DNA from: a phage
Sequence record: PX092659.1
Length of the DNA stretch: 64,000 nucleotides
Reading direction: 5' to 3' (one strand)
Shown: positions 36,278-48,008 of the stretch, one piece after another
Layout: each line of letters begins with the position of its first letter
How positions within the stretch are numbered: position 1 is the stretch's first letter
Notes under the pieces: model-generated
Databases searched by the model: none
What the model saw: the letters and a program-made list of their open reading frames with translations, nothing else
What the model was told of the DNA's origin: nothing
Position numbers and translations under genes: made by a program

Positions 36278-37046
36278 ATATTCATAAATTAGGGAACAGC
36301 GAGCCGATTACGCTGAACTTGTCTTAATGTAAGATGCGTCGAGCACTAAGATTCGTTGAATAGAGTCGGTGGGTTAGTTGTAAAACTAGTACACAGGGGG
36401 CGGCAATCCCGGTTAGTGGCTAGAACGTGTAAAATGAGGCGTCTGAAACCTCTCCCCTAAACTCTTCTCTAATTTATAAATAGTGGGGTGTGGAAATCAC
36501 TTATGTAGTAGCACTGCCGTCCTAGTATAATTGGTATTATCAAGCCGTAACTGGTGGAAGATGTAGGTTCGAATCTTACGGTCGGTAAGAACTGGATAAC
36601 TGATGCTTTTAACGTAAAAGCTTCCGAGGTTAGTTGCGCACTGCCTAAACCACGCGGTAGTTGGTTCCAGGCTAACCAACCAGTCTGCTGAATAGTTTTA
36701 TTACGATTTAACTATGTCCAGACTAAAGAAGAACTTTAGAAGGTATTCTAGGATAGTGAAGTTCTTTCTCCATATCGGAGTAGTTTTTCAAGCTATCCAC
36801 AAAGTGGGAAATGCTGACATGAGAGATGTCACTAATGGTGCACAATAGCACAGGTAATTCGCGATAACTCCTGTTGAGTAGCAGCAAAAGGCGGGAAGTC
36901 ATGACCCCAAGCCTAACCGAGTCCTCAATATACCGCAGGACATAACCACTAAGTCACCCTGACTTAAACTGGAAAATAATAGACGTTACTGTATTTTGTC
37001 TTGAAATACTTAATGAGTGAGACTTATGACTCTCCCGGTATCGTCT

Positions 37047-41578: not shown

Positions 41579-41655
41579 GGGGGTGTAATCGAATTGGCAT
41601 AGGTACTGGACTTAAAATTCAGGTTTTGTGGGTTCGAATCCCACCACCCCTACCA
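41579..41655 (+). tRNA. tRNA with TAA anticodon (Leu-type anticodon) but short variable arm
   Basis: Acceptor GGGGGTG/CACCCCT, anticodon stem CTGGA/TTCAG with loop CTTAAAA, 5-nt variable region, T-arm GTGGG-TTCGAAT-CCCAC, A73-CCA. Confidence 0.6.
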
Positions 41656-43380: not shown

Positions 43381-43463
43381 GGGTCGTTAGCCAAGCGGTT
43401 TGGCGGCGGATTGTTAATCCGTGTCGAAAGACAACGTAGGTTCGAATCCTACACGGCCCGCCA
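43381..43463 (+). tRNA. class II-shaped tRNA with GTT (Asn-type) anticodon and G73
   Basis: Acceptor GGGTCGT/ACGGCCC, D-stem GCCA/TGGC, anticodon stem GCGGA/TCCGT with loop TTGTTAA, 13-nt variable arm with GTC/GAC stem, T-arm GTAGG-TTCGAAT-CCTAC. Confidence 0.55.
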
Positions 43464-44884: not shown

Positions 44885-44915
44885 TATCTTATAAAGTGTT
44901 GAGAAGGAAAGCAAA

Positions 44916-45113
44916 ATGAAAAAAGTTTTACTGCTGTCTGTATTCCTACTTACTGGTTGTTTTAAACTTGACTCAACCATTAATAAAGAGTATGAATTTG
45001 CTAAAAATTTCTGTGGCGGAGAGAGTAATATAAAGAATTTCTACATATATAGTACAATTCCTAGTACCGTTTATTGTGTAGACGGACGAATTATTAATAT
45101 TCCTCCACAATAA
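44916..45113 (+). CDS. small lipoprotein (signal peptide with lipobox LLTGC)
   Basis: 65 aa; MKKVLLLSVFLLTGC then mature Cys; AAGGAAAGC RBS. Confidence 0.55.
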   Translation: MKKVLLLSVFLLTGCFKLDSTINKEYEFAKNFCGGESNIKNFYIYSTIPSTVYCVDGRIINIPPQ

Positions 45114-45122
45114 AAGAATTAA

Positions 45123-45198
45123 CAGTGCGTAGCGCAGTTGGTAGCGTGGGAGCCTTGGATGCTTCGGGTCGCAGGTTCGAGTCCTGCCGCACTGACCA
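45123..45198 (+). tRNA. tRNA-Pro (anticodon TGG)
   Basis: Acceptor CAGTGCG/CGCACTG, D-arm GCGCAGTTGGTAGCGT, anticodon stem GGAGC/GCTTC with loop CTTGGAT, T-arm GCAGG-TTCGAGT-CCTGC. Confidence 0.75.
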
Positions 45199-45204
45199 AA
45201 CAAT

Positions 45205-45282
45205 TGCGGGTTAGATCTCTGGTAGAGATCGCTAGTCTCATAAGCTAGAAAGAGGTAGGTTCGATTCCTGCACCCGCTTCCA
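45205..45282 (+). tRNA. tRNA with CAT anticodon (Met/Ile2 type), 1-72 mismatch
   Basis: Anticodon stem CTAGT/GCTAG with loop CTCATAA; T-arm GTAGG-TTCGATT-CCTGC; acceptor TGCGGGT/ACCCGCT has a U-U at position 1-72. Confidence 0.6.
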
Positions 45283-45471
45283 TTTTAATAGAGGGTTTCG
45301 AAATGAAAGTATTTCGATTAGTAGTAAGTGACAAACGTTTAGGTAAGAATACCTCAAAATCCTTACTTGCTCATTATGGAAAAGATGAGAAAGAAGTAAT
45401 GGCGGAGTTTGGGATTAATCACCCTTACTTGAAAGTTCACTCTATTAAAGAAGTATATAATGGTTACTAAT

Positions 45472-45550
45472 AGATCGCTAGCTCAATAGGTTTAGTAGCA
45501 TCCGACTTTTAATCGGAAGGTTCTGGGTTCGAGTCCCAGGCGATCTACCA
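45472..45550 (+). tRNA. tRNA-Lys (anticodon TTT)
   Basis: Perfect acceptor AGATCGC/GCGATCT, anticodon stem TCCGA/TCGGA with loop CTTTTAA, T-arm CTGGG-TTCGAGT-CCCAG. Confidence 0.8.
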
Positions 45551-45568
45551 ATTTCAAGAAAAACGCAG

Positions 45569-45597
45569 TTGCTTAATGCGTAATTTCTTGTTACAAT
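45569..45597 (+). promoter_or_regulatory. sigma70-type early promoter: TTGCTT-N17-TACAAT
   Basis: Cassette variant; followed by about 235 nt of ORF-free leader before tRNA-Ala. Confidence 0.55.
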
Positions 45598-45835
45598 ATT
45601 TATATAAATTGATGAGGAGAAATCCTCGTCATAGTTCACTAAGGTATTAGCTCGACCTAGGACTGGCTGCCAAAAAGCACGATCCCTACGATTCGGGAGA
45701 AGTTCTAGATTAGTCCACTAGATTCAGCGGCAACTGAATAGTGTATCGGGTTTGCGAGATGACGCGGTTCCTTCCGCTCGAAGCGAAGGTGCTGTAGTTA
45801 CGCCGAGCTAATAGCCTTAGTAAACTAAAGAATTT

Positions 45836-45910
45836 GGGCGAATAGTGTCAGCGGGAGCACACCAGACTTGCAATCTGGTAGGGAGGGTTCGAGTCCCTCT
45901 TTGTCCACCA
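45836..45910 (+). tRNA. tRNA-Ala (anticodon TGC)
   Basis: Acceptor GGGCGAA/TTTGTCC with G3-U70 wobble (Ala identity pair), anticodon stem CCAGA/TCTGG with loop CTTGCAA, T-arm GAGGG-TTCGAGT-CCCTC. Confidence 0.8.
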
Positions 45911-45915
45911 AATAC

Positions 45916-45992
45916 GCGTGATTGATGGAATTGGCATACATACCGTCCTTAGAAGTCGGGTTTTGAGGGTTCGAATCCCTTGTCACGCACCA
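45916..45992 (+). tRNA. tRNA with TAG anticodon (Leu-type anticodon) but short variable arm
   Basis: Acceptor GCGTGAT/GTCACGC, anticodon loop CTTAGAA on stem CCGTC/GTCGG (one mismatch), 5-nt variable region, T-arm GAGGG-TTCGAAT-CCCTT, A73. Confidence 0.55.
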
Positions 45993-46104
45993 AATTTGAT
46001 GGTCAGAGTAAATTAAACCTACTATCTCGGTTGAGCTGTTTTAATGGGTTCGAATCCCAGCGAGGCGTAACTGCCTGGCGTGATAGAGGCATCATCTTAT
46101 TACT

Positions 46105-46195
46105 GGAAGAGCAAATCGAATTGGCGACGAAAACCGCTTGGAAAGTGGCTGACTGGTAAAACGGCTTGAGAGTTCAAATCTCTCCTCTTCCGCCA
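46105..46195 (+). tRNA. tRNA-Ser (anticodon GGA), class II
   Basis: Acceptor GGAAGAG/CTCTTCC, anticodon loop TTGGAAA on 4-bp stem, long variable arm, T-arm GAGAG-TTCAAAT-CTCTC, G73-CCA. Confidence 0.6.
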
Positions 46196-46214
46196 AACAC
46201 TTGAGGTAATAATA

Positions 46215-46562
46215 ATGTTAGCAAAAGATAAAGCTCTAGAGTTTTTAGCATCTTTAGATGAAGATAAGATTATAGATGCTGCTGAAAAAGCTGGAATGCC
46301 CGATTTAACATATCTGGAACGTGCTATTATTGCTCGTGATAAACTACAGAAAGAGTTTGCTATTGCCCAGGAGGAGTTTTATACTCGCTATAACGCTCTT
46401 ACTAAGCAAATTGAAAATGAGTGTTCCCATACTTGGGGAGTAACAGAAAACCTAGGTAATGATCACGATGGCTGGTCTAAAGTAAAAATTACCTACTATC
46501 ATCGTAGGACTTGTAAAATTTGTGGAAAAGTAGAAGATTTCACTAGTACGAGTGACTATTAG
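46215..46562 (+). CDS. hypothetical protein
   Basis: 115-aa track ORF after GAGGTAATAATA RBS. Confidence 0.5.
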   Translation: MLAKDKALEFLASLDEDKIIDAAEKAGMPDLTYLERAIIARDKLQKEFAIAQEEFYTRYNALTKQIENECSHTWGVTENLGNDHDGWSKVKITYYHRRTCKICGKVEDFTSTSDY

Positions 46563-47924: not shown

Positions 47925-47932
47925 AGTAATAA

Positions 47933-48008
47933 GCGGTTAAGCACACGGGTTGTGTCGCAGGCCTTCCAAGCCTCGCTGAGTAGGGTTCGATTCCCTCTAG
48001 CCGCTCCA
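47933..48008 (+). tRNA. tRNA-Gly (anticodon TCC)
   Basis: Acceptor GCGGTTA/TAGCCGC, anticodon stem AGGC/GCCT with loop CTTCCAA, T-arm AGGG-TTCGATT-CCCT. Confidence 0.65.

Follow-up and report, generated by a model that had tools for sequence, protein, structure and literature searches.

The 64,000-nt window of phage DNA analyzed here (PX092659.1) contains a dense tRNA array of the type found in phages and mobile elements, within which ARAGORN called 24 tRNAs between 37090 and 49147. [quoted passage not shown] The same interval scored 47.5 bits against the Rfam tRNA family RF00005 (E = 1.1e-7), compared to a gathering score of 29, and its assignment to this family is additionally supported by the ARAGORN call and by covariation among its relatives. 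Over 130 phage records, among them those of BF23 and of a T5 isolate, contain the 77-mer at 100% identity; because most of these records label it tRNA-Leu (a single record uses 'tRNA-OTHER'), the gene is one already known. Across the flanking 1.3 kb, identity to Tequintavirus genomes is 95-96%; one of these, chee24, has a tRNA-Leu annotated at the same place, and the window is that of a T5-like phage. The counterparts in T5-like phages (Tequintavirus and Epseptimavirus; chee24 P24_t0010, BF23, S124 HOT67_gt019) occupy the same position after a tRNA-Ala in the cluster, the S124 copy being 84% identical. Homologues with 76-88% identity were found in Epseptimavirus, Felixounavirus, Seunavirus, and Avunavirus, all of them called by ARAGORN as tRNA-Leu(tag) of 77-78 nt, and all retaining A73, the CUUAGAA loop, and the 5-nt variable loop. 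The gene is real, intact, and conserved. A first-pass annotation made from the sequence had described a 77-nt class I body with A73 and a single anticodon-stem mismatch, a description on which the sequence, ARAGORN, and Rfam agree. It had also read the loop CTTAGAA as a UAG anticodon, the anticodon that ARAGORN assigned, and neither ARAGORN nor Rfam returned the different anticodon or pseudogene call that it had named as counting against the gene.

The structural elements of the tRNA can be assigned to positions on the plus strand as follows. The acceptor stem pairs GCGUGAU (45916-45922) with GUCACGC (45982-45988), and all seven pairs covary within the family of short-arm tRNA-Leu genes described below; the stem contains a U7-G66 wobble, C2-G71, and G3-C70 rather than G3·U70. 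The D arm (45925-45941) has a 3-bp stem (AUG/CAU), a G13·A22 mismatch, and the loop AAUUGGCAU, which includes A14, A15, G18G19, and A20a and is of the host tRNA-Leu type. The anticodon arm (45943-45959) reads CCGUC-CUUAGAA-GUCGG, with a U30·U40 mismatch (45946/45956), A37, and the anticodon UAG at 45950-45952, for which CUA is the cognate codon. The variable loop (45960-45964) is GUUUU, a 5-nt loop that stands in place of the 13-15-nt arm of host tRNA-Leu, and its last base, U48, is the Levitt partner of A15. The T arm (45965-45981), supported by covariation, is GAGGG-UUCGAAU-CCCUU and carries U54, U55, C56, and A58. The discriminator A73 (45989) is followed directly by the encoded CCA, which ends at 45992. 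The tRNA does not have the long variable arm (>10 nt, forming a stem-loop) by which class II tRNA-Leu is defined, and instead shows the 4-5-nt variable loop, Leu anticodon, and Leu-type core of a type I tRNA-Leu. It also differs at position 37 from the CUN-reading class II isoacceptors leuW and leuV, which have G37, the site of m1G37. We considered A37 as a hallmark of the short-arm build but rejected it, because A37 is common in viral tRNA-Leu(UAG) whether the arm is short or long (74% vs 56%, p = 0.05). Minimum free energy folding of the single 77-mer did not recover the cloverleaf (z = -1.4); folding of this type usually misses the cloverleaf of single tRNA sequences and is uninformative here.

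In textbooks and recent reviews, a long arm is taken to be universal in bacterial-type tRNA-Leu. We searched IMG/VR with a pattern that admits either arm length (AATTGG-N12-16-CTTAG-N14-40-GGTTCRANTCC) and applied ARAGORN to at least 120 of the matching loci. Among the matches listed were at least 57 short-arm and at least 61 long-arm tRNA-Leu(tag) genes, lying in tRNA arrays; the median locus had 8 tRNAs. The length of the variable region was bimodal in these listed matches, with 5-7 nt in 55 genes, 9-17 nt in 61, and almost none between. The nearest neighbour of a gene was of the same build in 84.5% of cases among the listed IMG/VR matches, and 13 of 55 short-arm genes were closest to a long-arm gene. 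When the same pattern, restricted to short loops, was applied to GTDB species genomes, the matches listed included at least 118 short-arm Leu(tag) genes, from actinomycetes, cyanobacteria, and many metagenome-assembled genomes, again in dense arrays (loci of up to 8 kb had a median of 10 tRNAs). Short-arm tRNA-Leu genes with the anticodons CAA, UAA, GAG, CAG, and AAG occur in the same arrays; the unselected genes of the listed matches included at least 63 with caa, 47 with taa, 21 with gag, and 8 with cag, indicating that the armless build is not tied to one anticodon.

The sequences of this family were used to examine whether the tRNA is still under constraint. In 43 diverse members, 99.1% of the cloverleaf cells were paired, compared to 60% for shuffled sequences and 36-45% when the partners were slid, and compensatory changes were present in 18 of the 20 pairs. 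Positions left unconstrained by the search pattern were also nearly invariant in a set of 62 members, with U48 found in 60, A73 in 61, A20a in 59, and a non-Watson-Crick combination at 13·22 in 58. Pair 30-40 is usually G-C in this set (55 of 62), and U·U occurs in the T5-type sequence only. Among close homologues, U·U is found in T5-like, Seunavirus, and some FelixO1-like genes, the other close relatives having G·U, G-C, or C-G; in HY02 and SME50 the pair adjoining the mismatch has changed from G-C to A-U. Because U·U persists across phage groups while the neighbouring pair covaries, the mismatch appears to be tolerated, and perhaps maintained, rather than being a sign of decay. These data bear on the possibility that the gene is a decaying relic or pseudogene, carried along in the cluster, with the arm deletion and the stem mismatch representing damage. 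One mismatch in the anticodon stem, a build that is non-canonical for bacterial-type tRNA-Leu, the single 'tRNA-OTHER' label, and tRNA-like remnants nearby are what such a relic would leave behind. A relic would not, however, be expected to persist as an identical 77-mer in so many genomes and to score well above the Rfam threshold, nor to belong to a diverse family with near-complete, compensated pairing while having all tertiary and identity positions intact and a mismatch that is kept in three phage subfamilies as the adjoining pair covaries. We consider decay to be highly improbable.

To place the tRNA relative to those of the host, we aligned it with E. coli leuW(UAG), leuZ(UAA), and leuV(CAG). 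Included in the alignment was a second tRNA-Leu of the window, a 77-nt class I tRNA-Leu(UAA) called by ARAGORN at 41579-41655 on the plus strand and scoring 57.4 bits with Rfam. The first-pass annotation had noted the same short-arm build in this UAA tRNA, and it does align as a paralogue with the same D, variable, and T loops. The host D arm (GGAAUUGG.A.AC) is present in both phage tRNAs, as are U48, A73, and the host T loop, and both show a clean gap of 8-10 columns at the position of the host variable arm. Based on this alignment, the body of the phage tRNA-Leu(UAG) is that of a host-type tRNA-Leu from which the variable arm has been cleanly removed. Its likeness to leuW extends to the anticodon, A73, C2-G71, the 3-bp D stem, the 13·22 mismatch, the D loop AAUUGG.A, U48, and the T-loop partners; leuW differs in its long arm, its total length of 85 nt, and G37, where the phage tRNA has its 5-nt loop, A37, and in addition U30·U40. 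The 77-mer had no blastn match in 5,426 E. coli genomes, and thus gave no direct signal of a host origin.

The D arm was also compared in a nearest-isotype test, in which positions 8-26, with the anticodon arm masked, were scored against approximately 2,900 ARAGORN-extracted tRNAs of 20 isotypes from 239 loci. Leu(UAG) genes were left out of the comparison because the search pattern had selected those bearing AATTGG. Long-arm tRNA-Leu with other anticodons gave the best match, with medians of 6-8 out of 20, compared to medians of 0 or below for the 19 other isotypes.

[quoted passage not shown] The same review notes that E. coli LeuRS needs neither the anticodon nor the long arm, and that a minimal tRNA-Leu without anticodon arm and variable arm is still charged (PMC9976931). 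The set recognized by E. coli LeuRS is complete in the phage tRNA-Leu(UAG), which has A73, U8:A14, A15-U48, G18G19, A20a, U54-A58, U55, C56, and C2-G71. Ala and Ser are the other tRNA identities that do not depend on the anticodon. The phage tRNA has G3-C70 in place of the G3·U70 of tRNA-Ala, and therefore does not have alanine identity; it has a short loop and A73 in place of the long arm and G73 of tRNA-Ser, and therefore does not have serine identity. A review table lists a T5 tRNA-Leu, citing work of the Weiss laboratory (PMC4810235).

A published case with a similar build is the type I tRNA-Leu(CAA) of Streptomyces coelicolor, which also has a 5-nt loop and is found alongside long-arm tRNA-Leu in a bacterium with one LeuRS (Fan et al. 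2019, PMC6614811). That study gave 5 nt as the minimum length of variable loop for good leucylation, reported no charging of the Streptomyces tRNA by E. coli LeuRS, and described the Streptomyces enzyme as alone among known prokaryotic LeuRS in accepting both types (PMC6614811). The variable loop of the phage tRNA is exactly 5 nt and so equals the Streptomyces minimum for good charging. The failure of E. coli LeuRS to charge the Streptomyces tRNA may not transfer to the phage tRNA, because the Streptomyces tRNA has C48, and thereby does not have the A15-U48 pair that E. coli LeuRS needs and that the phage tRNA has kept. [quoted passage not shown] Short-arm Leu tRNAs are conserved in three enterobacterial phage families, which argues that the LeuRS of E. 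coli and Salmonella accept them, and the phage tRNA-Leu(UAG) is most likely charged by the host LeuRS.

We compared codon usage in the phage ORFs with that of a host sample of E. coli K-12 genes. The window has a GC content of 39%, compared to 52% for the host sample. CUA is used at 18.8 per 1000 codons in the phage and 4.1 in E. coli, a difference of approximately 4.6-fold, and makes up 21% of the Leu codons in the phage but 4% in the host sample, in keeping with the first-pass description of CUA as a rare E. coli codon. UUA (24.3 vs 9.6 per 1000) and CUU (16.3 vs 9.0) are also more frequent in the phage than in the host, and CUG is less frequent (14.1 vs 58.3). The UAG and UAA anticodons of the two phage tRNA-Leu correspond to the two Leu codons with the strongest over-use, and the two tRNAs together could cover all six Leu codons. 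Plain AT pressure would account for the codon bias equally well. Enrichment of CUA in late or structural genes, which the earlier annotation had proposed to look for, was present in chee24 but marginal: of all Leu codons, CUA accounted for 26% in late structural genes compared to 21% in early replication genes (Fisher p = 0.047), and the bias is genome-wide. A clearer difference between these late and early genes was the smaller share of CUG in the late genes.

The amino acid specified by CUA was assessed by comparison with Salmonella phage S124, using 36 orthologues with 79% amino-acid identity. CUA stood opposite a Leu codon at 87.3% of positions, other Leu codons doing so at 82-92%, and 70 of the 92 changes involving CUA were to other Leu codons, the remainder being mostly to V, F, M, or I. 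Because its conservation as Leu is within the range of the other Leu codons and its exchanges are mainly with Leu codons, CUA is read as leucine, and the comparison lends no support to recoding. Class I tRNAs with a UAG anticodon do carry Thr or Ala in yeast mitochondria (PMC7609411), and by analogy the phage tRNA could be aminoacylated with something other than leucine, such that CUA or CUN codons would be partly recoded during infection. Such recoding is scarcely credible for this tRNA, given the exchanges of CUA with other Leu codons, a G3-C70 pair that excludes Ala, a missing long arm and an A73 that exclude Ser, a Leu-type D arm, and an anticodon loop of the normal 7 nt.

We conclude that the gene very probably encodes a working leucine tRNA of a T5-like phage, one that would be charged by the host LeuRS and supply decoding of CUA and other CUN codons. 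In the sequence of events that we propose, the tRNA would be transcribed together with its cluster neighbours as a polycistronic precursor, from which host tRNA-processing enzymes would release it with its CCA already encoded. Host leucyl-tRNA synthetase would then add leucine, and U34 would read CUA and probably other CUN codons, a wobble range that presumes the modification state of U34 and A37. Together, the UAG and UAA tRNAs would cover Leu codons that this AT-rich phage (39% GC) uses far more than does its host. If E. coli LeuRS charges the phage tRNA, it would be an experiment of nature in support of a dispensable arm, and would provide a compact, naturally optimized leucine tRNA scaffold.

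The absence of the arm can be considered in relation to the other class II tRNAs of the same arrays. The ratio of long to short arms in the same listed loci was 174:3 for tRNA-Ser and 78:3 for tRNA-Tyr, indicating that arm loss is specific to Leu. Among class II isotypes, leucine alone has a bacterial synthetase that can do without the long arm, and retention of the arm by tRNA-Ser and tRNA-Tyr is what would be expected if LeuRS alone tolerates its loss. The economical reading is therefore one of relaxed constraint, the arm being dispensable for LeuRS but needed by SerRS and TyrRS.

An additional role for arm loss is suggested by recent work on tRNA-targeting immunity. Host tRNA-Tyr is cleaved in its variable loop by retron-Eco7 and Septu, to which the T5 tRNA-Tyr is resistant because its loop is altered (PMC13096335); the nucleotidyltransferase toxins AbiEii and MenT3 prefer long-arm class II tRNAs (bioRxiv 10.64898/2026.01.19.700257). 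The short arm might accordingly have been selected because defence effectors of the host or of competitors recognize or cut the long variable arm that class II tRNAs carry. With an armless tRNA-Leu, leucine decoding would be sustained while the host tRNA-Leu is under attack, an advantage that would add to its decoding function rather than replace it. Ser and Tyr tRNAs would be barred from this route of escape because their synthetases need the arm. The frequency of short-arm Leu in phage arrays (57 short to 61 long UAG genes among the matches listed) and its presence in bacterial mobile arrays fit with such selection, as does the scarcity of intermediate lengths among the listed matches. We consider this role doubtful nonetheless: our literature search found no enterobacterial effector aimed at the variable arm of tRNA-Leu, about half of the viral tRNA-Leu(UAG) genes among the matches listed retain the arm, and relaxed constraint explains the short-arm pattern equally well, given that LeuRS can dispense with the arm. 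In its broadest form the proposal is that armless tRNA-Leu is a distinct and widespread architecture of phage and mobile arrays, making up about half of viral Leu(UAG) of this D-loop type, and kept for defence escape while remaining a LeuRS substrate. We regard this broader proposal as unlikely but worth stating; if true, it would overturn the published view of the Streptomyces LeuRS as the sole prokaryotic enzyme charging both types.

The relation of these genes to published work is as follows. Type I tRNA-Leu is a kind already known from mitochondria and Streptomyces, and the part that may be new is its prevalence in phage and mobile tRNA arrays. Bacterial tRNA genes have been reviewed as structurally uniform (PMC4033280). 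In tRNA array units, which occur in bacteria, plasmids, and phages and are dense clusters of the type in which the short-arm Leu(UAG) genes lie, tRNA-Leu(UAG) has been reported to be over-represented (Tran et al. [quoted passage not shown] Our literature search found no paper on a short-arm tRNA-Leu in phages, T5 included, or on how common this build is in phage or mobile arrays. A conserved, covarying short-arm tRNA-Leu in T5-like, FelixO1-like, and rV5-like phages and in many mobile arrays contrasts with the view of a uniformly long-armed molecule, and raises the question of whether arm loss helps phages to evade tRNA-targeting immunity.

The gene immediately upstream is a tRNA-Ala(UGC) (45836-45910, plus strand; ARAGORN), which ends 5 nt before the tRNA-Leu. 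A scan of 44900-46357 for promoter and terminator consensus sequences found none, and the two genes are probably on one transcript. The window phage does not have the tRNA-Val/ORF block found upstream in chee24 or the HNH endonuclease gene found in S124; otherwise nothing of substance differs from these T5-like relatives. In chee24 (L001, 1651-2831), a tRNA-Val(tac) and three small ORFs lie between tRNA-Lys(ttt) and tRNA-Ala. The corresponding slot in the window (45550-45836) is just 286 nt, and no tRNA-Val was called anywhere in the window, a pattern that points to an indel polymorphism within the tRNA cluster. In S124 (L255, 44619-45148), the HNH homing-endonuclease gene is situated between tRNA-Ala and tRNA-Leu, its 3' end overlapping the first 6 nt of the tRNA-Leu. 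Several more HNH genes are found among the tRNAs of S124, and tRNA-Leu(TAA) is unannotated in that stretch.

Additional tRNA-like sequences were observed within the cluster, all on the plus strand. The spacer that follows the tRNA-Leu (45993-46080) contains a T-arm-like sequence, UGGGUUCGAAUCCCA, and is 100% identical to chee24 compared to about 95% regionally; the T-arm-like sequence may be left over from a tRNA or serve in processing. At 46105-46195 is a 91-nt class II cloverleaf with a 7-bp acceptor stem, a short variable arm, a good T arm, G73, CCA, and the loop UUGGAAA (anticodon GGA). It is identical to a tRNA-Ser annotated in chee24, but was missed by ARAGORN in both the window and chee24 and by Rfam at E<=1; in S124, ARAGORN called a tRNA-Ser(gga) in this slot. 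A tRNA-like cloverleaf at 47932-48008, with the loop CUUCCAA (UCC, Gly), U73, and CCA, had no ARAGORN call and a sub-threshold Rfam match to tRNA-Sec (30.9 bits). Because it lies in the slot of the chee24 tRNA-Gly(tcc), with which it shares only about 50% identity, this sequence is a replaced or strongly diverged Gly tRNA. The interval 36516-36587 gave an Rfam tRNA match of 30.7 bits, compared to the gathering score of 29, without an ARAGORN call and with a poor predicted fold; an odd tRNA-Ser-ACT is annotated near its counterpart in S124. Two of the tRNAs called by ARAGORN, tRNA-Asn(gtt) at 43381-43463 (83 nt) and tRNA-Lys(ttt) at 45472-45550 (79 nt), are above the usual length for class I.
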